Of a DNA stretch of 64,000 nt, positions 7,877-58,056 are shown one piece after another; the first letter of the stretch is position 1, and each line of letters begins with the position of its first letter. The notes under the pieces were generated by a model. The model saw only the letters and a list, made by a program, of their open reading frames with translations. It searched no databases and was not told the origin of the DNA. A program made the position numbers and the translations under genes. This stretch comes from a virus (Duplodnaviria > Heunggongvirae > Uroviricota > Caudoviricetes), in the IMG/VR virus record IMGVR_UViG_2778261571_000004, one strand, 5' to 3'.

Positions 7877-9910
7877 TTACTTAACCTGGTGGCCAGGTTT
7901 AGCACCGACATCCGGGCTTAACAGGAAGATATCTTTCCCGCCAGGGCCAGCAGCCATCACCATGCCTTCGGAGATACCGAAGCGCATTTTACGCGGAGCC
8001 AGGTTAGCCACCATAATGGTGTGACGACCAATCAGTGCCTGTGGGTCTGGATAAGCAGAACGGATGCCTGAGAAGACATTGCGTTTTTCACCGCCGAGAT
8101 CCAGTGTCAGACGCAGCAGCTTGTCAGAACCTTCAACAAACTCTGCGTTTTCGATCAGCGCCACGCGCAGGTCAACTTTGGCGAAGTCGTCAAAGGTGAT
8201 GGTTTCCTGAATCGGGTCGTCAGCCAGTGGGCCAGTTACCGGTGCGGCTGTGGCTTTCACTTCTTCTTTGGATGCTTCCACCAGTGCTTCCACCTGTTTC
8301 ATATCGATACGGTTATACAGTGCCTTGAACGGATTCACTTTATGGCCCAGCAGCGGTTGCTGGATACCATCCCAGGTCAGTTCTGTATTCAGGAATGCTT
8401 CTGCACGTTCAGTCAGTTTCGGCAGTACCGGCTTCAGGTACGTCATCAGCACGCGGAACAGGTTAATGCCCATAGAGCAAATCGCCTGCAGATCGGCATC
8501 GCGTCCTTCCTGCTTCGCCACCACCCACGGAGCCTGTTCATCGACATAGCGGTTAGCCAGGTCAGCCAATGCCATGATTTCACGGATAGCTTTACCAAAT
8601 TCGCGGCTTTCCCATGCTTCGCCAATCACTTCAGCGGCATCAGTAAAGGTTTTGTACAGTTGCGGGTCAGCCAGTTCGTTTGCCAGCACGCCGTCAAAAC
8701 GCTTGTTGATAAAGCCTGCATTACGGGAGGCCAGGTTAACCACTTTGTTCACGATATCGGCATTCACGCGCTGAACGAAATCCTCCAGGTTGAGATCGAT
8801 ATCATCAATGCGCGAAGAGAGTTTCGCAGTGTAGTAGTAACGCAGGCTGTCAGCGTCAAAATGATTCAGCCAGGTGCTGGCTTTAATAAAGGTGCCGCGA
8901 GACTTGGACATCTTCGCGCCGTTCACCGTCACATAGCCATGAACAAACAGGTTGGTCGGCTTGCGGAAGTTGCTGCCTTCCAGCATGGCAGGCCAGAACA
9001 GGCTGTGGAAGTAAACGATATCTTTACCGATGAAGTGGTACAGCTCGGCGGTGGAGTCTTTCTTCCAGTATTCATCGAAGCTGGTGGTATCGCCGCGCTT
9101 GTCGCACAGATTCTTGAAGGAACCCATGTAGCCAATCGGCGCGTCCAGCCAGACGTAGAAATATTTGCCCGGCGCGTCCGGAATTTCAAAACCGAAGTAA
9201 GGCGCATCGCGGGAGATATCCCACTGTTGCAGGCCAGATTCAAACCACTCCTGCATTTTGTTTGCCACCTGCTCCTGCAACGCGCCGCTGCGGGTCCATG
9301 CCTGCAACATTTCGCTGAAAGAAGGCAGATCAAAGAAGAAGTGTTCGGAATCACGCATTACCGGGGTAGCGCCAGAAACCACCGATTTCGGCTCGATCAA
9401 TTCAGTCGGGCTATATGTTGCGCCGCAGACTTCACAGTTATCGCCGTATTGATCTGGCGCTTTACATTTCGGGCAGGTGCCTTTTACAAAACGATCCGGC
9501 AGGAACATGCCTTTTTCCGGGTCGTACAACTGAGAGATAGTGCGGTTTTTAATAAAACCGTTCTCTTTCAGGCGAGTATAGATAAGCTCAGACAACTGAC
9601 GGTTCTCTTCGCTGTGCGTCGAGTGATAGTTGTCATAGCTGATGTTAAAGCCTGCGAAATCAGTCTGGTGTTCCTGACTCATTTCGCCAATCATCTGTTC
9701 CGGTGTGATACCAAGCTGCTGTGCTTTCAGCATGATCGGCGTACCGTGGGCATCGTCGGCACAGATGAAATTAACCTCGTGGCCGCGCATTCGCTGGTAA
9801 CGAACCCAGACATCAGCCTGGATGTGCTCCAGCATATGGCCGAGGTGGATTGAGCCGTTAGCGTACGGCAGCGCGCACGTCACCAGAATTTTCTTCGCGA
9901 CTTGGGTCAT
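7877..9910 (-). CDS. metG: methionine--tRNA ligase
   Basis: 677-aa product from Met44 of the track ORF; near-identical over its length to enterobacterial MetG as I recall it (HLGH and KMSKS class-I motifs, CPKC..CEVCG zinc knuckles). Confidence 0.95.
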
Positions 9911-10067
9911 AGTAGGCATTACTTCTTTGTAGTGAAAAGGGGCTTGATAGTAACAAAATGGCCTTATGTCTGCCATGTGATAACAGCATTTCTCATAAAT
10001 GATTAAATGTCGTAGCTGGAGTACACTACAAGGCGACAATTGCGCAAATTAAAATAAAGGAGACGGG

Positions 10068-11168
10068 ATGAGCGAGTCCAAATCGCCGGATGCCCTGAGA
10101 GCAATGGTAGCCGGTACGCTGGCTAATTTTCAGCACCCAACCCTGAAACACAACCTGACTACGCTTAAAGCGTTACACCATGTTGCGTTGATGGATGACA
10201 CACTGCATGTCGAACTAATCATGCCTTTCGTGTGGAATAAGCCTTTTGAAGACCTGAAAGAGCAATGTAGTGGTGATCTGCTCCGTATCACTGGCGCAAA
10301 GGCTATCGACTGGAAGCTGTCGTACAACATTGCCACGCTTAAGCGCGTCAAAAACCAACCAGGCATTAATGGCGTTAAGAACATTATCGCCGTCAGCTCA
10401 GGCAAGGGCGGTGTAGGCAAATCGTCCACAGCAGTAAACTTGGCACTGGCGTTGGCTGCTGAAGGTGCGAAAGTTGGTATTTTGGATGCCGATATCTACG
10501 GTCCATCAATTCCAACCATGCTGGGTGCGGAAAACCAACGTCCAACCTCACCGGACGGCACTCACATGGCACCTATCATGTCTCATGGCCTGGCAACCAA
10601 CTCAATTGGTTATCTGGTCACTGACGACAACGCGATGGTGTGGCGTGGCCCGATGGCGAGCAAGGCGTTGATGCAAATGTTGCAAGAAACCTTATGGCCG
10701 GATCTGGATTATCTGGTGCTCGACATGCCGCCAGGCACCGGTGACATTCAATTGACACTGGCGCAAAACATTCCTGTAACTGGTGCGGTTGTGGTAACTA
10801 CGCCGCAAGACATCGCGCTGATCGATGCGAAGAAAGGCATTGTGATGTTCGAAAAAGTCGAAGTGCCGGTACTAGGTATCGTCGAAAACATGAGTGTGCA
10901 TATTTGCAGTAACTGCGGTCATCACGAGCCAATTTTTGGCACCGGTGGCGCACAGAAACTGGCCGAGAAATACAACACGCAGTTGTTAGGCCAAATGCCA
11001 CTTCATATCTCTCTTCGTGAAGATCTGGATAACGGAACACCAACCGTTATTAGTCGTCCAGATAGCGAATTTACGGCTATTTATCGTGACCTCGCAGATC
11101 GCGTTGCTGCCCAAATGTATTGGCAAGGTGAAGTAATACCTGGCGAAATCGCATTCCGCGCAGTGTGA
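10068..11168 (+). CDS. apbC: Fe-S cluster carrier ATPase ApbC/Mrp
   Basis: P-loop SSGKGGVGKS, ParA/Mrp family, CxxC near C-terminal half; divergent from metG as in enterobacterial chromosomes. Confidence 0.9.
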   Translation: MSESKSPDALRAMVAGTLANFQHPTLKHNLTTLKALHHVALMDDTLHVELIMPFVWNKPFEDLKEQCSGDLLRITGAKAIDWKLSYNIATLKRVKNQPGINGVKNIIAVSSGKGGVGKSSTAVNLALALAAEGAKVGILDADIYGPSIPTMLGAENQRPTSPDGTHMAPIMSHGLATNSIGYLVTDDNAMVWRGPMASKALMQMLQETLWPDLDYLVLDMPPGTGDIQLTLAQNIPVTGAVVVTTPQDIALIDAKKGIVMFEKVEVPVLGIVENMSVHICSNCGHHEPIFGTGGAQKLAEKYNTQLLGQMPLHISLREDLDNGTPTVISRPDSEFTAIYRDLADRVAAQMYWQGEVIPGEIAFRAV

Positions 11169-13083: not shown

Positions 13084-14642
13084 ATGAAAATGACAAGTAT
13101 TCAACAACGTGCAGAGCTTCATCGTCAAATCTGGCAAATTGCTAACGATGTCAGGGGTTCGGTCGATGGATGGGATTTTAAGCAATACGTTCTGGGCGCA
13201 CTTTTCTACCGTTTTATCAGCGAAAATTTTTCCAGTTATATTGAAGCCGGTGATGACAGTATCTGTTATGCGAAACTGGATGACAGCGTAATTACTGATG
13301 ACATTAAAGACGATGCCATCAAAACTAAAGGCTACTTCATCTACCCCAGTCAGCTTTTCTGCAACGTAGCTGCGAAAGCAAATACTAATGACAGACTGAA
13401 TGCAGATTTAAACAGCATCTTCGTTGCTATCGAAAGTTCTGCTTACGGTTATCCTTCAGAAGCAGACATCAAAGGTTTGTTTGCTGATTTCGATACCACC
13501 AGTAACCGCCTGGGTAACACCGTTAAAGATAAAAATGCCCGCCTGGCTGCGGTTCTGAAAGGGGTTGAAGGGTTAAAACTTGGTGACTTCAACGAACATC
13601 AGATTGACCTGTTCGGTGATGCCTATGAGTTCCTGATTTCTAACTATGCGGCAAATGCCGGTAAGTCAGGCGGTGAGTTCTTTACACCGCAGCACGTCTC
13701 CAGGCTGATTGCACAACTGGCAATGCATGGCCAGACCCACGTTAACAAAATCTACGACCCGGCAGCGGGTTCCGGCTCACTGTTGTTGCAGGCGAAAAAA
13801 CAGTTTGATAACCACATCATCGAAGAAGGCTTTTTCGGTCAGGAAATCAACCATACGACCTATAACCTGGCGCGTATGAACATGTTTTTGCACAATATCA
13901 ACTACGACAAGTTTGATATCAAGCTGGGTAATACACTGACTGAGCCGCACTTCAGAGATGAAAAACCGTTTGACGCCATCGTATCTAACCCACCGTATTC
14001 GGTGAAATGGATTGGCAGCGATGACCCGACGCTGATTAACGATGAGCGTTTTGCCCCGGCTGGCGTTCTGGCCCCCAAATCCAAAGCTGACTTTGCGTTT
14101 GTATTACATGCACTGAACTATCTTTCTGCCAAAGGTCGTGCTGCGATTGTCTGCTTCCCGGGTATTTTTTACCGTGGCGGCGCGGAGCAGAAAATCCGTC
14201 AGTATCTGGTCGATAATAACTATGTCGAAACCGTGATTTCACTGGCACCGAACCTGTTCTTTGGCACCACCATTGCAGTAAACATTCTGGTGCTGTCTAA
14301 ACATAAAACGGATACCAACGTTCAGTTTATTGACGCCAGCGAACTGTTCAAAAAAGAGACTAACAACAATATCCTGACCGATGCCCATATCGAACAGATT
14401 ATGCAGGTATTTGCCAGCAAGGAAGATGTTGCTCATCTGGCGAAATCTGTCACGTTTGAGACCGTTGTCGCGAATGACTATAACCTGTCGGTAAGCAGCT
14501 ATGTGGAAGCGAAAGATACTCGCGAAATTATCGATATCGCTGAGTTGAATGCAGAACTGAAAACCACGGTCAGCAAAATCGACCAGTTGCGTAAAGATAT
14601 TGATGCGATTGTGGCTGAAATTGAAGGCTGCGAGGTGCAGAA

Positions 14643-14646
<4 letters not shown>
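13084..14646 (+). CDS. hsdM: Type I restriction-modification methyltransferase subunit HsdM (Type IC, EcoR124-family)
   Basis: 520 aa; NPPY catalytic motif (NPPYSVKW), AdoMet motif [10 protein letters not shown]; matches my recollection of EcoR124 HsdM. Confidence 0.9.
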
Positions 14647-15890
<1,244 letters not shown>

Positions 15891-16011
15891 TTGACCATTG
15901 CTACCGACCGGGCCACCTTAACACCCGGTCTGTATATAGACTATTTTTTACGCGCCGGAAGTCACTCTTAACGCCCTTCCGGCCCTTGCCAGGCGGCACA
16001 AAGGATGCGCT

Positions 16012-19000
16012 ATGACTCATCAAACACACACCATTGCTGAATCCAATAACTTTATCGTCCTTGATAAGTACATCAAAGCTGAGCAAACAAGCGACAGCTA
16101 CCAGAGCGAATCGGACCTGGAACGTGAACTGATTCAGGACCTGCGGAATCAGGGTTATGAATTTATTTCCGTAAAATCACAGTCGGCAATGCTGTCCAAT
16201 GTTCGGGAACAGCTTCAGAGCCTCAATGGTGTGATGTTTAATGACAGCGAGTGGCGGCGCTTCACGGAGCAGTATCTGGACAATCCCAGCGATGGTATTC
16301 TGGATAAGACCCGTAAAATCCATATCGACTATATCTGCGACTTTATTTTTGACGACGGGCGTCTTGAGAACATCTATCTGATCGATAAAAAGAATCTCAT
16401 GCGCAACAAAGTGCAGATTATCCAGCAGTTTGAACAGGCAGGTTCTCATGCTAACCGTTATGACGTCACGATCCTGGTTAATGGCTTGCCTCTGGTGCAA
16501 ATCGAACTGAAAAAGCGCGGCGTGGCGATTCGTGAGGCTTTCAACCAGATACATCGTTACAGTAAAGAGAGTTTTAACAGCGAAAACTCCCTGTTTAAGT
16601 ATCTGCAACTGTTTGTCATTTCTAACGGCACCGATACCCGTTATTTTGCCAACACAACAAAGCGCGATAAAAACAGTTTTGATTTCACCATGAACTGGGC
16701 GAAATCAGACAACACGCTGATTAAAGACCTCAAAGACTTTACCGCTACCTTTTTCCAGAAACATACTCTGCTGAATGTTCTGGTGAACTACAGCGTGTTT
16801 GACAGTAGTCAGACGCTACTGGTGATGCGACCGTACCAGATTGCCGCCACCGAGCGCATTCTGTGGAAAATTAAGAGCTCCTTTACAGCGAAGAACTGGT
16901 CAAAACCGGAAAGCGGTGGGTATATCTGGCACACTACCGGTTCTGGTAAAACCCTTACCAGCTTTAAAGCCGCGCGTCTGGCAACAGAGCTGGACTTTAT
17001 TGATAAAGTCTTCTTTGTGGTCGACAGAAAAGACCTCGATTACCAGACCATGAAGGAATATCAGCGTTTTTCGCCAGACAGCGTCAACGGCTCGGAAAAT
17101 ACCGCAGGCCTTAAACGAAATCTGGATAAGGACGATAACAAAATTATCGTCACTACTATTCAGAAACTCAATAACCTGATGAAAGCAGAAAGCGACCTGC
17201 CTGTATATAATCAGCAAGTGGTGTTCATATTTGATGAATGCCACCGCAGCCAGTTTGGAGAAGCGCAGAAAAACCTGAAGAAGAAATTCAAACGCTATTA
17301 TCAGTTTGGTTTTACCGGCACCCCTATTTTCCCGGAAAACGCCTTAGGCTCAGAAACAACCGCCAGCGTATTTGGTCGTGAATTGCATTCGTATGTAATT
17401 ACCGATGCGATTCGTGACGAAAAAGTGCTCAAATTCAAGGTGGACTACAACGATGTGCGGCCACAGTTTAAGTCTTTAGAGACAGAAACTGACGAGAAAA
17501 AACTAAGTGCGGCTGAAAATCAGCAGGCGTTTCTTCATCCCATGCGTATTCAGGAAATCACGCAATATATTCTGAATAATTTCCGCCAGAAAACTCACCG
17601 TACCTTCCCTGGCTCAAAAGGTTTTAATGCTATGTTGGCAGTGAGCAGCGTGGATGCCGCGAAAGCCTATTATGCGACGTTTAAACGGTTACAAGAAGAA
17701 GCCGCTAATAAATCGGCTACCTATAAACCGCTGCGTATTGCGACAATCTTCTCCTTTGCCGCTAATGAAGAACAAAATGCCATTGGTGAAATTTCCGATG
17801 AAACTTTTGATACCAGCGCAATGGACAGCAGTGCTAAAGAGTTTCTGGACGCTGCAATTCGTGAATATAACAGCCATTTTAAAACTAACTTTAGCACCGA
17901 CAGTAACGGTTTTCAGAACTACTATCGTGATTTAGCCCAGCGGGTTAAAAATCAGGATATCGATCTGTTAATTGTCGTTGGGATGTTTTTAACCGGCTTC
18001 GACGCTCCAACATTGAACACGCTATTCGTCGATAAAAACTTGCGTTTTCACGGCCTGATGCAGGCATTTTCCCGCACCAACCGTATTTATGATGCAACTA
18101 AAACCTTCGGTAATATCGTCACTTTCCGGGATCTGGAACGCTCAACCATCGATGCCATAACGCTGTTTGGTGACAAAAACACCAAAAATGTAGTGTTAGA
18201 AAAGAGTTATGCAGAGTATATGGAAGGCTTTACTGATGCTGCTACAGGTGAAGCTAAACGCGGCTTTATGGCAGTAGTTTCAGAACTGGAACAACGGTTC
18301 CCTGACCCTGCCAGTATTGAAAGTGAAAAAGAGAAGAAAGACTTCGTTAAACTGTTTGGCGAATACCTGCGTGCCGAGAACATCCTGCAAAACTATGATG
18401 AATTTGCCACGCTGAAAGCCCTGCAACAAATCGATCTTAGCGATCCTGTTGCGGTAGAAAAATTCAAAGAAGAACATTATGTGGATGATGAAAAGTTCGC
18501 TGAATTGCAAACGATTCGTCTCCCTGCTGAACGCAAGATTCAGGATTATCGTTCTGCCTATAACGATATTCGTGACTGGCAGCGCCGCGAGAAAGAAGCT
18601 GATAAAAAAGAAAAATCAACCACTGACTGGGATGACGTGGTTTTTGAGGTCGATTTGCTGAAGTCTCAGGAAATAAACCTGGATTATATCCTTGGACTGA
18701 TTTTCGAACACAACAGACAAAATAAAGGCAAGGGCGAAATGATCGAAGAGGTCAAACGCTTAATTCGTTCAAGCCTGGGGAACCGGGCGAAAGAGGGCCT
18801 GGTGGTCGATTTTATTCAGCAAACGAACCTGGATGATTTACCAGACAAAGCCAGCATCATTGACGCGTTCTTTACCTTTGCTCAACACGAACAGCTACGT
18901 GAAGCAGAAGCGTTGATTAAAGAAGAAAATCTCAATGAAGAGGCGGCGAAACGCTATATTCGCACGTCTTTAAAACGCGAATACGCCACCGAAAATGGCA

Positions 19001-19128
19001 CAGAATTAAACGAGACATTACCAAAACTTAGTCCGTTAAACCCGCAATATAAAACGAAAAAACAGACGGTTTTCCAGAAAATCGTCACGTTTATTGAAAA
19101 GTTCAAAGGAGTAGGTGGGCAGATATAG
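16012..19128 (+). CDS. hsdR: Type I restriction endonuclease subunit HsdR (Type IC)
   Basis: 1038 aa; SF2 helicase motifs (TGSGKT, DECH) and N-terminal nuclease domain; length matches EcoR124 HsdR as I recall it. Confidence 0.9.
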
Positions 19129-21289: not shown

Positions 21290-21304
21290 GTGTTTTTCCT
21301 AATT

Positions 21305-22012: not shown

Positions 22013-22033
22013 GTGTTTTCCTTTTGTTATTTG

Positions 22034-24350: not shown

Positions 24351-24535
24351 GTTGGTTTCCTTAAAGTGGTTCATAAAATCGATTTTAAAGCGTCTGGGAA
24401 GGGGTTCTAGTGGATTCTGTAGTGATGTTCAGGTCTGGAGTCTCTGATACAAAACAGCCTGCTTCCGTATATTAATAATTAATATGTAGTTATTTATATA
24501 TACAGAAGCAGGCTAATTACAGACGCCAGAACAAA

Positions 24536-25129
24536 CTAAGCAGCCTTCTTTGATGGTCTTTTTTTCCTGATCACATTCGCAGGATCATACCCTCCCAGAC
24601 TTTTCATGACGTCCAAAGGGATCTTGCTTATAGAGTGCCCAGCGTCCTGACAGAATCCTCGAAAAACAACGAGCATACTGCCACCGGGGTTGATGTTTAC
24701 TTCTACCTGACCCAAATTGACGTCAGGCTCGACAAACGCTACGCGGCCACCAGACAGAATAATCGTCTCATTCGCACACTCTGTTGCACGCTCATACCAC
24801 TTTGTATCGAGGGATTGAGGAATTAGCATCACTGTTGTAACTCCGCGAGCCTGCTCACGTATAGCCGCATCAATCCAGGGGGAGATTTTGGAGTAGGGTG
24901 GATTGAGGAAGGCAATTGTACCTGGCTGTCCCCATTCAGATTTCAAAGCATCACGCTCAACGCCTATGAAATTAGGCAGCTTCGCATTGTCCTTGTTGCA
25001 GGCAACGTCAACATCAAATGTCACTCCAAGATAACGTTGAATGGCAGAAAACAGCCAGTCAGGTGTTCTCCAGAGGTCACGAAGAGAGTTGTCGCGCTTT
25101 CGCTGTTTGATTTTTTCGGCTGCAATCAT
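24536..25129 (-). CDS. DNA N6-adenine methyltransferase, phage Dam family (orphan)
   Basis: WRTPDWLF...FDVDVAC...FLNPPYS signature of small phage Dam-type MTases; no cognate nuclease adjacent. Confidence 0.7.
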   Translation of the reverse strand: MIAAEKIKQRKRDNSLRDLWRTPDWLFSAIQRYLGVTFDVDVACNKDNAKLPNFIGVERDALKSEWGQPGTIAFLNPPYSKISPWIDAAIREQARGVTTVMLIPQSLDTKWYERATECANETIILSGGRVAFVEPDVNLGQVEVNINPGGSMLVVFRGFCQDAGHSISKIPLDVMKSLGGYDPANVIRKKRPSKKAA

Positions 25130-25140
25130 CTTCTTTCTCG

Positions 25141-25160
25141 ATAGGTAAGTGATTACCTAT
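25141..25160 (-). promoter_or_regulatory. motif-2 palindrome (ATAGGTAAG-tg-aTTACCTAT) upstream of Dam-family gene, approximate
   Basis: Inverted repeat about 12 nt 5' of the start. Confidence 0.4.
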
Positions 25161-25312
25161 TTTTGCATTTGATTTTATGTCTGGCAATCAAATAAAACGC
25201 GCCAGAAATGCAAACGAGAAGCTCTCTGGCGCGTTTTTGTGGTGCTGGATATGTGATTGGCTTACCCAGCACTATAAAGCTCTCTATGGGCTTTATTTTC
25301 AGTAGGGGGACG

Positions 25313-26122
25313 TCATCCAATAGTGTACTCCGCTACAAACTTCTTAACGATCGGTGATTCTTCGTTCAATGTTAGATTTCCACCGTCTCTAACGGCAATT
25401 CCTGTCGCTGGAAATACAGCCATCATTTGCCCAGCCTGAGTTGACGCAGTGTTAAGCGGATACGGTTTTTCTGGATTGCTCATTAAAGCAATCTTAATAC
25501 TATTACTTGTAGCCTTCTTTTCTGTGAGAAGGTGTCTCATGGAAATTACCGTGTAAACACTAATATCTGGACCTCCGCTAAACCAATTAAGAAGGTTTAA
25601 TATCTTATCCTTTGCTTTGACAGGCGCGTTATCGTAAGCGTCTAAGAAAATATCTGTTTCTAAGCCTGCTTTATTGAAAAACGAATCATCTTTATCACTT
25701 AAAGTAAAACGAGGACCTCTTGCAGTACGCGCTTTTTTATTTGTGTTGCTATCATTTGACTGTTGAACTTTTAATTCATCATTAACATCAACACACTCTT
25801 CAACCTCAATCAATCCCAATTGTTCTGGCTCATTTTCGGCAACTTCACCACTTTCAGTGTTAATTACGTTTATAGGCTCATGAGCTAACTCCAACTCATT
25901 TAAAGCGGAGCTGAAATCACCTGCTTTTTCTTCATTGAACAGTTCTTTGGCAACATCATCAGAACTCATGGCTACGCCAGCATCGAGGCCGAGAAGCAGA
26001 TCGTCAATATCATCAGTATTTTCAACCTGTGCAGCTTTTTTTACTGGTTCATCAAGTGATTGCAACATGGCTGTCAGCTCATCCAGATCATCATTTGTCA
26101 TTACATTTTCAACCGAACTCAT
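25313..26122 (-). CDS. hypothetical protein with strongly acidic N-terminal half
   Basis: AGGAGA SD; first about 120 aa D/E-rich. Confidence 0.5.
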   Translation of the reverse strand: MSSVENVMTNDDLDELTAMLQSLDEPVKKAAQVENTDDIDDLLLGLDAGVAMSSDDVAKELFNEEKAGDFSSALNELELAHEPINVINTESGEVAENEPEQLGLIEVEECVDVNDELKVQQSNDSNTNKKARTARGPRFTLSDKDDSFFNKAGLETDIFLDAYDNAPVKAKDKILNLLNWFSGGPDISVYTVISMRHLLTEKKATSNSIKIALMSNPEKPYPLNTASTQAGQMMAVFPATGIAVRDGGNLTLNEESPIVKKFVAEYTIG

Positions 26123-26282
26123 GTAAGTCTCCTTCTGTTTAGTTGCATTTGCGTTTCGATGGCTACATTTTGACTAAACCTATCAGGCGGAAAAGTATTA
26201 AATACAGGCAGGAAATGATTGAAAGGCGACTGTTCTTTAAAAGAAAGCCTGCTTCAAACTCTCTTTAAAGCAGGCTTTTGTT

Positions 26283-26840
26283 TTACACAATTTCAGAGGG
26301 TAATTTAAAAAATCCGTATTTATTACGTGCCTTAAAGAAGCATTGCATCATTAAGTTTGTGTCATATAAGGCACTATGTGCTTTGGCATGATCGTATATA
26401 AAGCCAAGAGAGAAGGCCAATTCTTCAAGGCGAGGACGTTTACCGTCTTCTGTGGCCCACAATCCCGATAACATAGTATCTATAACGGGAACGTCTGGCA
26501 GTCTTACTCCATACCCTGAAAACTCGTGTCTAATAAATGGTATATCAAACGCTTCGCCGTTATGAGCAACCCACGCACTACATGCCTCCATATAAGCGCC
26601 AATTTCGCTGGCATGATTTGACAACAAAGGTTCAGCTGCCAGCTGTTCTAATGAAATGCCATGAACGGCTTGAGCTTTCGGATCTATGTTTCTGCGAGGG
26701 TTAAAACGCATCTCCAGACTATCAATATGTCTCTGTGTCTCCAGTTCATAGCGGGTAATTGCGATTTCAATAATTTTATGACCAGCAAGGAAATCCAGTC
26801 CCGTAGACTCGATATCGATGCCTGCAACAATCGTTGTCAT
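26283..26840 (-). CDS. DEDDh-family 3'-5' exonuclease (DnaQ/ExoX-like)
   Basis: IDIESTG (Exo I), HNGEAFD (Exo II), HSALYD (Exo III) motifs. Confidence 0.7.
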   Translation of the reverse strand: MTTIVAGIDIESTGLDFLAGHKIIEIAITRYELETQRHIDSLEMRFNPRRNIDPKAQAVHGISLEQLAAEPLLSNHASEIGAYMEACSAWVAHNGEAFDIPFIRHEFSGYGVRLPDVPVIDTMLSGLWATEDGKRPRLEELAFSLGFIYDHAKAHSALYDTNLMMQCFFKARNKYGFFKLPSEIV

Positions 26841-26849
26841 CAGAACTCC

Positions 26850-27269
26850 TTACAACTTCTTAGCGCCCTTAAGTAGTGCGCTACGTACAAATTGAGCCGC
26901 TTTTTTCAAAGTTTCTTCACTGGTTTCACAGACAATCGGATCTTTCCACTTACCTGACGCAGTGTTGAGAATATTGATTTGGTTGCTATCCAGACAAACA
27001 GAGATATAAAGCACCGTGCCACCAGCCAGCATCAAATGCATAGGAAACAGAGGCTTTTTACTGCCTTCACTGAACTGAGACATGGCGATGTTAATGGCTT
27101 CACCCACTTGTGTACCAACAAGCCCCTGCGCAGTTTCGAATATGGCACGAATAGCCAGACGAGCCTCTCGATCGCTCATAAGCGACCGGGAATGTTCGTC
27201 CGCTACACGAATCAAAGCCTCTGTTGTTTTCCGATCCAGTTCATCTTCAAGCAACATTTCACTAAACAT
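26850..27269 (-). CDS. hypothetical protein
   Basis: ORF with AAGGAT SD. Confidence 0.5.
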   Translation of the reverse strand: MFSEMLLEDELDRKTTEALIRVADEHSRSLMSDREARLAIRAIFETAQGLVGTQVGEAINIAMSQFSEGSKKPLFPMHLMLAGGTVLYISVCLDSNQINILNTASGKWKDPIVCETSEETLKKAAQFVRSALLKGAKKL

Positions 27270-27330
27270 TTTTTATCCTTAACCCATTTTGAGAGTTTTA
27301 TTGTCGCAATGTCGAAGAGGCGAACAATTT

Positions 27331-27975
27331 CTAATGAACGGTTACTCGGCCACAGAACCGGTTTTCTATCTTTTCTACAGCGTTATCTAGCATTCTCATC
27401 ACTGATCTGGCTCTTGCTTCAACCGTGCGATATCGGTTGGAAACGACGAAGGTTTGCAGATCCCCCCTTTGCGGATGCAGGTGAATTTTTGTCAGTTCCC
27501 CGCACATCAACGCATCAATACGAGCGACATACAGACGGTCTAATGATGCTCGTTGTGATCGCAAGTAATCTCGCTCTGAGAGAGCGACTCCCGGGCGTAA
27601 GCCAGCAATGGCGTTAAAGTTTGAAATAGCAGTTTTGTGGCAAAACTTTTCGATATCGAGGGCTAACTCAATACATCGATCTTCATTGGTATGGCCGACC
27701 AAATCCAACGTGTAGGCCATAACATCAGCAGGTGTGCGATCGATAACAAAGCCTTCAACACCACGCGTAAGTAGCTCTATATGCTTTGCTATTTCCATTT
27801 GAATCTGAAGCCGCTCATATAGAGGCATAGACTCACCTACTCGAACACCGAGTCGGCTCATCAAACTTCCGACACCAGCATCCACGTAAGGGATTCCGTA
27901 ATGTTTGTCGATATATTTAGCCAGGGTTGTTTTCCCACTGCCCTGAGCACCAGTGATCCCAATCCGGTAATCCAT
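27331..27975 (-). CDS. P-loop NTPase, probable nucleotide kinase
   Basis: Walker A GAQGSGKTT near N-terminus; TAATG coupling with upstream DHFR gene. Confidence 0.55.
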   Translation of the reverse strand: MDYRIGITGAQGSGKTTLAKYIDKHYGIPYVDAGVGSLMSRLGVRVGESMPLYERLQIQMEIAKHIELLTRGVEGFVIDRTPADVMAYTLDLVGHTNEDRCIELALDIEKFCHKTAISNFNAIAGLRPGVALSERDYLRSQRASLDRLYVARIDALMCGELTKIHLHPQRGDLQTFVVSNRYRTVEARARSVMRMLDNAVEKIENRFCGRVTVH

Positions 27976-32226: not shown

Positions 32227-32254
32227 GTGTTTTTCCTTTTTCTTTTTTGGTGCG

Positions 32255-39265: not shown

Positions 39266-39519
39266 GTGTTTTTCCTTTGTGGTTATTTTGATACAAATTC
39301 TAAGAGCAATGAGGAGGTAAACAACTATGCATAACGGTATGTTAGGAATGAAACGAGCGCCTTAATATACAAAATTTATAAGTAAGTATATACCTATTTA
39401 TCGTGGCGTAACTTTGCTTGTCTGTATGACTAAAAATAAGACAGGATCACTGTAGAACGCTATGAGAGCTATTTTGAGGGGGCGTAGATTCTATCTACGC
39501 CAATATACGATCTGGAGGG

Positions 39520-43198: not shown

Positions 43199-43253
43199 GT
43201 GTTTTTCCTTTTGTGGTTAGTGTTTACTTATTTTGTTAGTTATGAATAGGCGA

Positions 43254-48400: not shown

Positions 48401-48517
48401 GTGTTTCTCCTTATTGTGATTTGGCCGATGGCGCTATGCGCGTTGGGCTTTCGTTCATTCGTGGCTCTTTCGAGCTGTTAAATGATAGATCAGTACTTAC
48501 TTATTATCTATCAAAAA

Positions 48518-54407: not shown

Positions 54408-54586
54408 GTGTTTTTACCTTTCTGGTTTTTTTTGATTTTGTCATTGGGGAAGCCTACGAACTTCCCATGCATCGAAATCGCAACTTCTTTTGCTGATTGG
54501 TGACAATCGGGCTTGTCTGGACACACCAGACAAGCCTTACCAGTTTCAGAAGCAGCGATAAGAGAGCCGAAACATCCTTTACGCAC
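54404..54586 (-). CDS. possible small zinc-ribbon protein (60 aa), doubtful
   Basis: C-x13-C-x2-C-x5-C; GTG start without SD; Cys codons lie in a perfect 11-bp inverted repeat. Confidence 0.2.
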   Translation of the reverse strand: MRKGCFGSLIAASETGKACLVCPDKPDCHQSAKEVAISMHGKFVGFPNDKIKKNQKGKNT

Positions 54587-55824: not shown

Positions 55825-55882
55825 GCGTTTTTCCTTTGTTCTCTAATGAGCGTTCAACTTCTTATATAAATATATCATCATC

Positions 55883-55919: not shown

Positions 55920-58028
55920 TCACTTTAAAATGATACGAGATAGTTCAGTAACTACAGATGAACCAAGACTATCAACGCTCGTTACCAGGGCATGATTTGA
56001 GTAAAATCTCTCCGGTGCGTCAGTCATGATGCCAATTGCCATCAAATCAATATCAGTCTGCGTTTCAATTTGCTTCGCAACTGAACGCAAATGAGCGTCA
56101 AAACCTCTCCCAACAGCCCACGGCGCGCCATCACTCAGAACAAGCATGATCTTCCTGTCCTCCATGCGACCGGAAAATAACGATGCAAGGCTGGCTATGC
56201 TTTCACCATCCACGTTATTAAGAAGTGGGAATGTGTACCCTACGCACCCCATACGTGAGCGAACTTCGCGAGAATTTACCTTTTCATTCCAATTTTTGAT
56301 GATAGGTAGCATTAAAGATTCAAAGCGAGAGAACTCATACTTGACAGCCTTAAGTTCTCCTGCCGCCATATGACTACCAAATGTAGTGAAGCCGGTGATA
56401 ATGTTGGGAACATTTATTCGATCAAGGGCATCGGCGATGGTATATGCACTTGCAAGAGCCAGTTTAATCGTTATACCACTCATTGAACCTGATAAATCAA
56501 TCACTTGTTGAACACAGGCGTTAACGGCTTTAGATTCTTCTTTTTTACGAAACACGCGAGCATCATTCATTGCTAATCTGTAGATACTAGAACCATGAAT
56601 GCGCCCCCGACGCTGGCCCGGTATAAACTGAACTCTGTTTCTGCTTGCTATTGCTCGCTCCAGGTCTTTTGCCAGCGTCGACGAAACACCTGACGAAAGA
56701 TGCTTTTCAATATATTTGTCGAAGAGCTGGTTGCCTTCAGAAACGATGCGATAGCGGCTGATTGGACATCCTCCTAAATCAATATCGGAGAATGTTTTAA
56801 TAAGCCGTTTGATATGGGCTTCTGCCTGATCAATCGAGCCGATGAAGTCGTATGAGCGATTGTATGGCCTGTATTCGCTTTTCGAGCTTTCTGTTAACTC
56901 GCTTTTAATCGTTTCGGATAGAGCATCTTCTGTCATGCCTCCGACTTCATCTTCTATGCTATCCAGCTCCTCTAAAGCCTCTTCCAGACTCATTTTTGAC
57001 GGAGTTGGAATATCTGAAGAGCCGTCTTCTGTCGTTTTTCTTTTTTCGTGGTCAGCGGTTAATGATTCTGACGCCGCGTTATCAGAAGCATCAGAATCTG
57101 ATACCTCTTTATCATTTTCTGTATCATCGAATATTGTTTCTGATGATTCAGAATTATCTGAATCATCGCTGTCGTTATTATCATGTTTGTGCTTACTGTG
57201 TGATTCTGATTTGATAGATTTGTGATTATCTAACGCTGAGGGTGTCTCATGATCTTCGTTGTCTTCATTGTTTTCTCCAGAGGCATCCGTCTGGTCAGCG
57301 TCTGAAGGATCGGAAGTTTTTCCCGGAGCTGACTCCTTACCTTTGCTTTCACTTTCAGTGTCTTTGAGGATCTTAGCTATGGTCGCAGCCACCTTTACAC
57401 AATCCTCGGTGCAAGACATGTTACGCACGGCCACATCGATACCATGTTCTTTTAATAATGAAATTGGTTTCTCAATGACAGGCCAATATTCATCCATGAA
57501 ATCTACGAACGGTGCTTGGCCATCCCAGGCTCTTACAACCGGACAGAGAAAGAAGTTTAGAAAAAGCGCGCGCTGATCTTTGCCACAATAAGCAATAGCC
57601 TCTGAAGCCTTTGGTTTAAAGACTTTTTCGATTATAAGGCGCTGAGTTGCCATCAGATTACGTCTTGTTCCGTTAAAGATCTGACCCATTTTTCGCTCGA
57701 TGAACACGTCTTCTAAGGCATTCCATAGCGACCAGGAAGGAACGCGTCCTTTTTCTCTCATTTTGTTGGACACACGAATATCGGTAAACAAAATGTGAGC
57801 AACCTCATGATCGAGAAATCCGCGCACAGCATTCATCAATGCCGGTGTTGCGTTATCCGGGATTGATGGGATGTTTACGAGAATTGGCTCTCCATCATCG
57901 TTATAGCGTACATAAGCGTCGTCCCCTCGTTCTGCAACAGGGATGTTTTTACCTGAAAGGAGAGCGACTACTCGTTTTACACTGTCACGGAAGTCCTGAA
58001 CCTCTTTGATGGAACGTTTTTTAGACAT
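55920..58028 (-). CDS. von Willebrand factor A domain protein, CobT-like, with acidic low-complexity central region
   Basis: MIDAS-like DLSGSMSG near C-terminal third; D/E/S-rich stretch. Confidence 0.6.
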   Translation of the reverse strand: MSKKRSIKEVQDFRDSVKRVVALLSGKNIPVAERGDDAYVRYNDDGEPILVNIPSIPDNATPALMNAVRGFLDHEVAHILFTDIRVSNKMREKGRVPSWSLWNALEDVFIERKMGQIFNGTRRNLMATQRLIIEKVFKPKASEAIAYCGKDQRALFLNFFLCPVVRAWDGQAPFVDFMDEYWPVIEKPISLLKEHGIDVAVRNMSCTEDCVKVAATIAKILKDTESESKGKESAPGKTSDPSDADQTDASGENNEDNEDHETPSALDNHKSIKSESHSKHKHDNNDSDDSDNSESSETIFDDTENDKEVSDSDASDNAASESLTADHEKRKTTEDGSSDIPTPSKMSLEEALEELDSIEDEVGGMTEDALSETIKSELTESSKSEYRPYNRSYDFIGSIDQAEAHIKRLIKTFSDIDLGGCPISRYRIVSEGNQLFDKYIEKHLSSGVSSTLAKDLERAIASRNRVQFIPGQRRGRIHGSSIYRLAMNDARVFRKKEESKAVNACVQQVIDLSGSMSGITIKLALASAYTIADALDRINVPNIITGFTTFGSHMAAGELKAVKYEFSRFESLMLPIIKNWNEKVNSREVRSRMGCVGYTFPLLNNVDGESIASLASLFSGRMEDRKIMLVLSDGAPWAVGRGFDAHLRSVAKQIETQTDIDLMAIGIMTDAPERFYSNHALVTSVDSLGSSVVTELSRIILK

Positions 58029-58039
58029 GGCTAATCCTT

Positions 58040-58056
58040 TGTTATGAAAACAAATT
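58040..58056 (-). promoter_or_regulatory. degenerate motif-1 (AAAACAAATTATTT), approximate
   Basis: 5' of CobT-like start. Confidence 0.3.

Follow-up and report, generated by a model that had tools for sequence, protein, structure and literature searches.

The acidic tails of SSB, T7 gp2.5, T4 gp32 and σ70 region 1.1 recruit or regulate partner proteins or auto-inhibit DNA binding. Known DNA mimics, by comparison, are rigid, compact folded dimers with a fixed carboxylate array (PMC12707154). Ocr and ArdA are expressed on DNA entry from the region that enters first; the mimics Ocr, ArdA, Arn and Gam show no mutual homology and arose several times independently (PMC12707154). We analysed a 64 000-nt stretch of tailed-phage DNA (IMG/VR record IMGVR_UViG_2778261571_000004; the whole stretch is called the window below) that carries two adjacent genes, one for a 269-aa protein with a highly acidic N-terminal half and one for a Dam-family DNA methyltransferase. 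An earlier note on this DNA had taken the two for a possible anti-restriction pair, with the acidic half acting as a DNA mimic. Both open reading frames (ORFs) proved to be real, at positions 25313–26122 and 24536–25129 of the minus strand. We propose, with moderate confidence, another assignment for the acidic protein: a DNA-anchored accessory factor in phage DNA replication or metabolism rather than a mimic of the Ocr/ArdA type.

Architecture of the acidic protein

Residues 1–125 contain 34 D/E and 5 K/R (net charge −29, isoelectric point 4.05), which bears out the acidic region of ∼120 residues described in the earlier note; residues 126–269 have an isoelectric point of 9.13. Alignments and an AlphaFold2 model built on 41 sequences divide the protein into three parts, with the following features.

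25313–26122, minus strand: 269-aa protein (phrog_5235) with N-terminal acidic motif, acidic linker and C-terminal winged helix
26027–26101, minus strand: conserved N-terminal amphipathic acidic helix, residues 8–32 (MTNDDLDELTAMLQSLDEP...), from alignment, model confidence and substitution rates
25730–25873, minus strand: low-confidence, probably disordered, indel-rich part, residues 84–131 (model confidence <50)
25316–25711, minus strand: conserved C-terminal domain with winged helix, residues 138–269, from alignment and model
25403–25456, minus strand: putative recognition helix, residues 223–240, within the C-terminal domain

The N-terminal helix has the conserved sequence ...DDLDELTAMLQSLDEP..., in which L13, D14, L20, L23 and D24 are nearly invariant among the relatives from SSU5-type phage-plasmids (the SSU5 group, see below), and residues 11–20 are modelled with a predicted local distance difference test score (pLDDT) of 83. 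The acidic half is modelled at low confidence (pLDDT 29–66; 52–66 at residues 21–80). Across the SSU5 group the wider linker (residues 46–135) varies in length from 58 to 113 residues, with a mean pairwise identity of 33%, and the N-terminal half keeps a median net charge of −22.

The C-terminal domain is modelled with pLDDT >90 and has a mean pairwise identity of 71%. Its predicted elements (helices 189–201, 206–214 and 223–240, strand 203–205 and the hairpin 243–246/249–252) follow the winged-helix topology H1-S1-H2-H3-S2-wing-S3, and the fold is closest to regulators of the ArsR, MarR, Fur and PadR families. Sequence identity to ArsR/SmtB, MarR, Fur, PadR and linker-histone globular domains is just 0–17%, and there is no Pfam match. 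Unlike these folds, the domain has extra helices at residues 146–181 and a recognition helix devoid of basic residues, and no dimerisation element of the kind typical of ArsR or MarR was identified in it. Conserved basic residues of the C-terminal half are found elsewhere (K169, K173 and R/K245). Winged helices are also capable of protein–protein contacts.

Ratios of non-synonymous to synonymous substitution rates (dN/dS) were obtained by a rough Nei–Gojobori calculation on 58 distinct sequences of the SSU5 group; synonymous divergence is near saturation and the values are approximate. The linker (residues 46–135) has dN/dS of 0.62, the N-terminal segment (residues 1–45) 0.21 and the winged-helix domain (residues 136–269) 0.105; for the neighbouring genes the values are 0.08 (DnaQ-like exonuclease) and 0.11 (phrog_5373 protein). 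Both ends of the protein are thus under purifying selection, and the values give no indication of diversifying selection. This pattern is that of a constrained domain joined to a disordered tail that keeps its composition only.

Extreme acidity is not unique to this protein. The window has 41 ORFs of 150 aa or more, and one other among them (positions 55920–58028) has an equally acidic 120-residue stretch; after these two ORFs, the next highest net charge over 120 residues is −20. The second ORF, on the minus strand, encodes 702 aa; its acidic stretch is rich in D, S, E and N and, with a net charge of −31 over 120 residues, is more acidic than that of the flagged protein. It is annotated as dimethylbenzimidazole phosphoribosyltransferase in Escherichia phage Cyrano, is read here as CobT-like and adjoins a ‘cobalamin synthetase’ gene.

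A family of acidic winged-helix proteins

A direct homologue search with the acidic protein returned 55 clusters, all labelled ‘hypothetical’; the named ones all come from Enterobacteriaceae, and many of these lie on contigs of about 100–120 kb. Searches of Pfam, NCBIfam, PADLOC and PDB sequences produced no significant match, in agreement with the earlier note, which had seen no specific motif. The protein matches phrog_5235 over its full length (E = 1.9e-148), and its C-terminal domain matches phrog_3932.

When 1.84 billion cluster representatives (50% identity) were searched with a C-terminal-domain profile, 645 matched at E ≤ 0.001 and 181 at E ≤ 1e-10. Nearly all of the best 150 of these 645 are 200–340 aa long, with the domain in C-terminal position. 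For 135 distant representatives, the net charge of the part preceding the domain averages −18.6 (−10 or more negative in 88% of them), while the domain itself is about neutral. A [DE]-L-x-A-[ILM]-L-x-x-L-[DE]-like motif was recognized by eye in the first ∼30 residues of many distant members; a strict version of the pattern matched just 18 of 73 members. These 73 diverse members all match both phrog_5235 and phrog_3932, which are sequence clusters only, labelled ‘unknown function’ and devoid of functional content, and no meaningful Pfam family was found among the 73.

The acidic protein itself carries, after its acidic N-terminal part, the family signature PxK(V/A)xxKxxN ... LSxYT ... PYxxGTAxxQxGQ(M/L)M. 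The putative recognition helix, (P)Y-x-x-GTA-x-x-Q-x-GQ-M-M, together with K169, K173 and N176, hardly varies among phages of Enterobacteria, Pseudomonas, Rhizobium and Stenotrophomonas. By tblastn and pattern scans, the family was placed almost only on phage contigs of 103–120 kb; carriers with names include Pseudomonas phage nickie with its relatives, the Rhizobium phages RHEph10, RHph_X66 and B1VFA, and the Stenotrophomonas phages ANB28 and BUCTxx99. Short versions of 127 aa in Klebsiella turned out to be alternative gene calls, the gene encoding 277 aa in phage pJN2-26.

In a word-indexed database of 5.8 billion proteins the C-terminal-domain profile gave 16 hits, all hypothetical and without domain fusions. 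Neither the single protein nor the domain profile matched anything significantly among PDB sequences, and a Foldseek search of viral predicted structures (BFVD) gave no annotated match, the best being a protein without a name (E = 3e-4). The acidic protein belongs to a family that is catalogued, though uncharacterised, and has an ordinary fold; the combination of winged helix, flexible acidic tail and conserved N-terminal helix is the architecture of the whole family.

The element and the conserved gene array

The 8 kb surrounding both genes are 98.8% identical to Escherichia phage Cyrano, 98% identical to phages CMS-2020a and PhiR41_1 and 77% identical to Salmonella phage SSU5. The same 8-kb stretch, taken together with the hsd genes discussed below, is covered to at least 80% in 37 plasmid records, of which the best eight are E. 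coli plasmids of 108–114 kb (∼97% identity). Judged by the identity to Cyrano and SSU5 and by this coverage, the window is part of a phage-plasmid of the SSU5/pHCM2 type.

In annotated relatives, both genes lie within a long co-directional minus-strand block devoted to replication and nucleotide metabolism. In the order of the gene strand, the block encodes NrdA, NrdB, a MazG-like protein, thymidylate synthase (ThyA), a PNKP-like protein, DHFR, a kinase-like P-loop ATPase, the phrog_5373 protein, a DnaQ-like 3′–5′ exonuclease, the acidic protein, the Dam methyltransferase, a small protein and RNase H. Replisome genes are present elsewhere on the element (DnaE-type Pol III alpha, helicase, primase, ligase and a gp32-like SSB), as are genes for RecA-like and SbcCD-like proteins and the plasmid initiator RepA. 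Two genes next to the acidic gene are listed here.

26283–26840, minus strand: DnaQ-like 3′–5′ exonuclease (PF00929; Pfam and PHROG), a neighbour kept family-wide
26850–27269, minus strand: 139-aa phrog_5373 protein, part of the conserved array

In the SSU5 group, 75 loci have at least 2 kb of sequence downstream, and in every one of them the Dam gene follows the acidic gene; the DnaQ-like gene precedes the acidic gene on the same strand in 75 of the 76 loci with at least 2 kb of upstream sequence. Distant loci give a different picture: the DnaQ-like gene is upstream on the same strand in 25 of 26 (the exception has no upstream sequence), at distances of 1.2–7.7 kb, typically ∼2.2 kb, while a homologue of the PF05869 methyltransferase was found within 10 kb of the family gene in none of the 26. 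The stable association is therefore with the exonuclease and the nucleotide-metabolism block, and adjacency to Dam is specific to the SSU5-type lineage. These counts speak against the functional pair proposed in the earlier note. Clustering of neighbours recovered a recurring array (kinase-like ATPase, phrog_5373, DnaQ-like exonuclease, zero to two variable genes, acidic winged-helix protein); no conserved gene was found downstream of the acidic winged-helix gene in distant loci.

The order ATPase, phrog_5373, DnaQ (the first two at 26850–27975 of the minus strand in the window) recurs in distant phages, with phrog_5373 in 11 and the ATPase in 9 of 21 loci. In the window the phrog_5373 gene lies 9 bp upstream of the exonuclease gene. 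Its product is modelled as a helical bundle with a small sheet, for which no informative structural match was found; it may be an accessory subunit of the exonuclease or of a polymerase.

Co-occurrence with Pol III alpha was considered as a partner signal and rejected: DnaE homologues are present in 1332 phage records, a number far above that of records with the acidic-protein family, and hence point to no specific partner.

A proposed role in phage DNA replication or metabolism

We favour a role in replication or metabolism because of the neighbouring genes. The winged helix would anchor the acidic protein on DNA or on a conserved partner, and the acidic tail with its N-terminal motif would recruit or regulate another phage protein of DNA replication or metabolism; alternatively, the tail might auto-inhibit DNA binding. 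The acidic tails of the E. coli SSB C-terminus, T7 gp2.5, T4 gp32, σ70 region 1.1 and HMGB1 offer an analogy: they too are flexible polyanions attached to a DNA-binding fold, with a short hydrophobic/acidic motif at the end. The acidic gene adjoins replisome genes. The tail described here differs from these in that it is N-terminal, has ∼130 residues, is joined to a winged helix instead of an OB fold and shares no homology with them.

Several observations weigh against this assignment. No homology to any known replication protein was found, nor any clear homology to a structural protein, either of which would have spoken against the mimic proposed earlier; the link to replication rests on conserved gene order and not on homology. 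Within a large co-directional early region, a conserved gene order says little about shared function. Both PHROG families (5235 and 3932) are labelled ‘unknown function’. T5 D5, a DNA-binding early protein for replication and late transcription, is unrelated (hhalign probability 0.5%). An origin located within the gene, as in lambda O or P1 RepL, was rejected as well: positions 24400–27000 contain no iterons, tandem repeats or AT-rich repeat clusters, and the repeat search there returned only three terminator-like hairpins. A k-mer comparison of 21 upstream regions, aimed at a shared operator, gave weak GCGA(A/C)A-like similarities that were not position-specific. The lack of iterons and of a common upstream motif, together with an invariant recognition helix, argues against any sequence-specific role on DNA; that helix, without basic residues and near-invariant across hosts of different classes, may bind protein instead. 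The terminator and promoter calls presented next are predictions from sequence, and a disordered acidic tail could also act against a host DNA-binding defence.

Predicted hairpins and transcription units

The minus strand carries the following putative transcription signals around the two genes.

26239–26283, minus strand: terminator-like hairpin between the DnaQ-like and acidic genes (AAAGCCUGCUU...AAGCAGGCUUU, then CUUUU), from folding and inverted repeat
25194–25237, minus strand: terminator-like hairpin between the acidic and methyltransferase genes (13-bp perfect stem AAAACGCGCCAGA/TCTGGCGCGTTTT, then UUUUAUUU)
25159–25187, minus strand: sigma-70-like promoter candidate (TTGCCA, 17 nt, AAAAAT, extended −10 TG), by consensus match only
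24456–24514, minus strand: terminator-like hairpin that follows the methyltransferase gene (stem AGCCTGCTTC/GAAGCAGGCT, then GUUUUGU)

Predicted folding energies are −21.3 kcal/mol (z = −4.0) for the hairpin at 26283–26239 after the DnaQ-like gene, −27.4 kcal/mol (z = −4.2; equalled by 0 of 200 shuffles) for the one at 25237–25194 and −31.2 kcal/mol (z = −5.2, for the 101-nt stretch folded) for the one at 24514–24456; all three were also found as inverted repeats. The promoter candidate lies between the middle hairpin and the start of the methyltransferase gene, in a region where such sites are not above shuffle expectation. A hairpin with a U-tract and a promoter-like site between the genes argues against an operon-like pair, and the acidic and methyltransferase genes look like separate transcription units.

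The hairpins after the DnaQ-like and methyltransferase genes have a common stem (AGCCTGCTT / AAGCAGGCT) and different loops. In nickie-like loci (L091–L093 and L104–L106), extended −10-like boxes (TGTAATAT, TGTATAGT and TGTATCAT) are situated ∼60–110 nt upstream of the family gene; several of them are followed by AAGCGCGACA-like sequences, in a pattern that is inconsistent across the family. These boxes may be a promoter or leader specific to this subgroup.

Possible alternative roles of the acidic protein

The main alternative, which we regard as unlikely, albeit deserving consideration, is that the acidic winged-helix protein is a phage transcription factor (a middle or late activator, a timing switch or a redirector of host RNA polymerase). 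By analogy with T4 MotA, the winged helix would sit on DNA and the N-terminal acidic motif on RNA polymerase or sigma. Such a role would suit the nearest folds (ArsR, MarR, Fur and PadR), the apparent isolation of the acidic gene as its own unit between structures consisting of a hairpin and a U-tract, and the conserved N-terminal amphipathic acidic helix, which would be apt for a protein contact. Moreover, the inspected parts of the Cyrano record have no annotation of a phage RNA polymerase or sigma factor, so that host RNA polymerase would need redirecting. Still, no DNA motif is common to the loci of the family, no Pfam regulator family matches, and a near-invariant recognition helix across host groups is unusual for a sequence-specific phage regulator. 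The one clear operator-like palindrome of the window, AACAANTTGTT, is confined to the SSU5 group; it was rejected as a target of the winged helix, being absent from all 23 distant protein-carrying loci checked.

The model of the earlier note, in which the acidic half mimics DNA, inhibits restriction and forms an anti-restriction module with the methyltransferase, appears improbable. The protein shares with Ocr, ArdA and T4 Arn a very acidic composition and a place on a mobile element. In its favour are the strong net charge (−29 over 125 residues), with negative charge kept family-wide, and the faster evolution of the acidic part (dN/dS 0.62 versus 0.06–0.11 for its neighbours); adjacency to Dam is invariant in the SSU5 group. 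As known mimics are mutually non-homologous, missing homology does not exclude a new one (PMC12707154).

The known mimics are, however, small single-domain proteins, compact and rigid, whereas here a variable, indel-rich region modelled with low confidence is fused to a conserved basic winged-helix domain. Structure prediction, which the earlier note had proposed as a check, thus returned a low-confidence tail and a confident winged helix and no compact mimic; a rigid carboxylate array is missing from the model. The gene occupies the middle of a replication and nucleotide-metabolism array, is divided from the Dam gene by the hairpin with its U-tract and the promoter-like site, and is without a Dam homologue nearby in the distant loci. 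Apart from two spurious matches, a search for Ocr (PF08684), ArdA (PF07275) and other Pfam families at E ≤ 10 found nothing, and NCBIfam and PADLOC searches with the acidic protein were equally negative. In a published DefenseFinder screen, which covered 1227 SSU5-group contigs, the sole anti-defence system reported as complete was Rad anti-retron (16% of the Escherichia contigs and 22% of those from Shigella). Finally, dN/dS below 1 shows no sign of an arms race, though with dS near saturation.

The restriction system that the earlier note gave as an example of what the module could counter is a complete Type I restriction-modification locus at 13084–19128 of the plus strand (hsdM, 520 aa; hsdS, 415 aa; hsdR, 1038 aa; by Pfam). 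It lies in a variable region. In Cyrano, where the locus is absent, DUF4942-methylase and Ea22-like genes are situated upstream of the shared block. The locus is 96% identical to hsd of phages phi456 and vB_EcoM-673R5 and is present at the same place in the 37 plasmid records, mostly E. coli plasmids of ∼110 kb. A locus found at one place in so many plasmid records, and on phages, is not a host system that the element must overcome; by its placement, hsd is cargo of the phage-plasmid itself. Of the anti-defence interpretation, the solitary methyltransferase was supported, with self-methylation as a reasonable role; the DNA mimic, the functional pair and the link to hsd were not.

The acidic part might also be a tethered, disordered polyanionic decoy, which would make the family a novel sort of host-takeover or anti-defence factor, an idea that we consider even less probable. 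With the winged helix on phage DNA or on the replisome, a tail of ∼130 residues, DNA-like and capped by the conserved helix, would locally titrate host DNA-binding proteins, among which restriction complexes, nucleases and nucleoid proteins could be targets. If true, the mechanism would be distinct from that of rigid Ocr and ArdA and would explain conserved charge without conserved sequence.

The solitary Dam-family methyltransferase

The characterised phage Dam members (of T1, HP1 and VT-2) methylate GATC. The enzyme of the window is of the same solitary phage type.

24536–25129, minus strand: N6-adenine DNA methyltransferase, solitary phage type (PF05869 Dam / TIGR01712), 197 aa; Pfam, NCBIfam and PADLOC
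24893–24904, minus strand: catalytic NPPY codons, methyltransferase residues 76–79, read from the sequence

It matches Pfam PF05869 ‘Dam’ with 131.8 bits (cut-off 28.1; profile positions 5–160 of 169) and NCBIfam TIGR01712 phage_N6A_met (‘phage N-6-adenine-methyltransferase’) with 113.9 bits (cut-off 97.05); the top PADLOC matches are ‘orphan methyltransferase’ models. No endonuclease partner was found among the flanking genes, the neighbours being an 84-aa phrog_5343 protein, RNase H, the acidic protein and the DnaQ-like exonuclease. In this respect the earlier note, which had called the enzyme an orphan Dam-family methyltransferase, was right. The gene has dN/dS of 0.06 in the SSU5 group.

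Homologues were detected by tblastn in 1604 phage records, among them those of Stx phages and of Vibrio, Klebsiella and jumbo phages. In comparison with the solitary Dam enzymes of T1, HP1 and Stx phages, the protein has the same full-length match above both cut-offs, the same NPPY motif and no nearby nuclease partner; it differs in that its closest phage homologues outside the SSU5 group are ∼40% identical or less. The target sequence is not confidently transferable. A PDB sequence search with the methyltransferase gave nothing significant. The window has 252 GATC sites (observed/expected 0.79), neither strongly avoided nor enriched, and this unremarkable ratio was discarded as a pointer to specificity.

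As a solitary phage-type Dam, the enzyme can reasonably be expected to act on the DNA of its own element, and most probably it does so. Self-methylation could confer passive protection or set an epigenetic mark. The methyltransferase is of an already known, widespread kind and, as such, routine. That the winged-helix protein reads or controls the Dam mark, in a SeqA-like or regulator-like manner, and so gates lytic replication or packaging is hardly credible, even with an invariant gene order in the SSU5 group and abundant GATC in the backbone (∼4.6 per kb across 20000–64000).

Other features of the window

The 11-bp palindrome AACAANTTGTT has nine exact copies in the window (positions 2235, 3836, 4739, 7730, 7781, 21309, 22038, 32259 and 43697) versus ∼0.1 expected from mononucleotide shuffles; with up to one mismatch there are 10 sites versus 2.95 expected, the extra site being at 58049. 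At four sites checked (21309, 22038, 32259 and 58049) it precedes the ribosome-binding site of a minus-strand gene by ∼10–30 nt, the downstream genes including NrdB and the CobT-like gene. Other SSU5-like loci have two to six copies per locus of 15–20 kb. The palindrome is probably the operator of an SSU5-specific regulator.

A conserved leader and ribosome-binding-site box, AAAGGAAAAACAC, is located directly at the start codon of at least seven minus-strand ORFs (boxes at 21290–21302, 22013–22025, 32227–32239, 39266–39278, 43199–43211, 48401–48413, 54408–54420 and 55825–55837). With up to two mismatches it occurs at 10 sites versus 2.75 expected.

A full-length methionyl-tRNA synthetase gene (7877–10039, minus strand) stands next to a gene for an Mrp/NUBPL-type P-loop ATPase (10068–11168, plus strand), annotated as MinD-like in Cyrano. 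The GC content at these two genes is 0.50–0.52, above that of the rest of the window.

Implications

Two lessons follow for the reading of phage genomes. High negative charge alone is no indicator of an anti-restriction mimic, and a restriction locus seen in the same window can be the mobile element's own. The acidic family, with 645 cluster representatives and no annotation in the libraries searched, resides beside a DnaQ-like exonuclease on contigs of ∼103–120 kb, and among its carriers are the clinically widespread phage-plasmids of the SSU5/pHCM2 type found in E. coli, Shigella, Salmonella and Klebsiella. The partner of the acidic protein could reveal how these elements run or control their own Pol III-type replication, or else a new device of host takeover.

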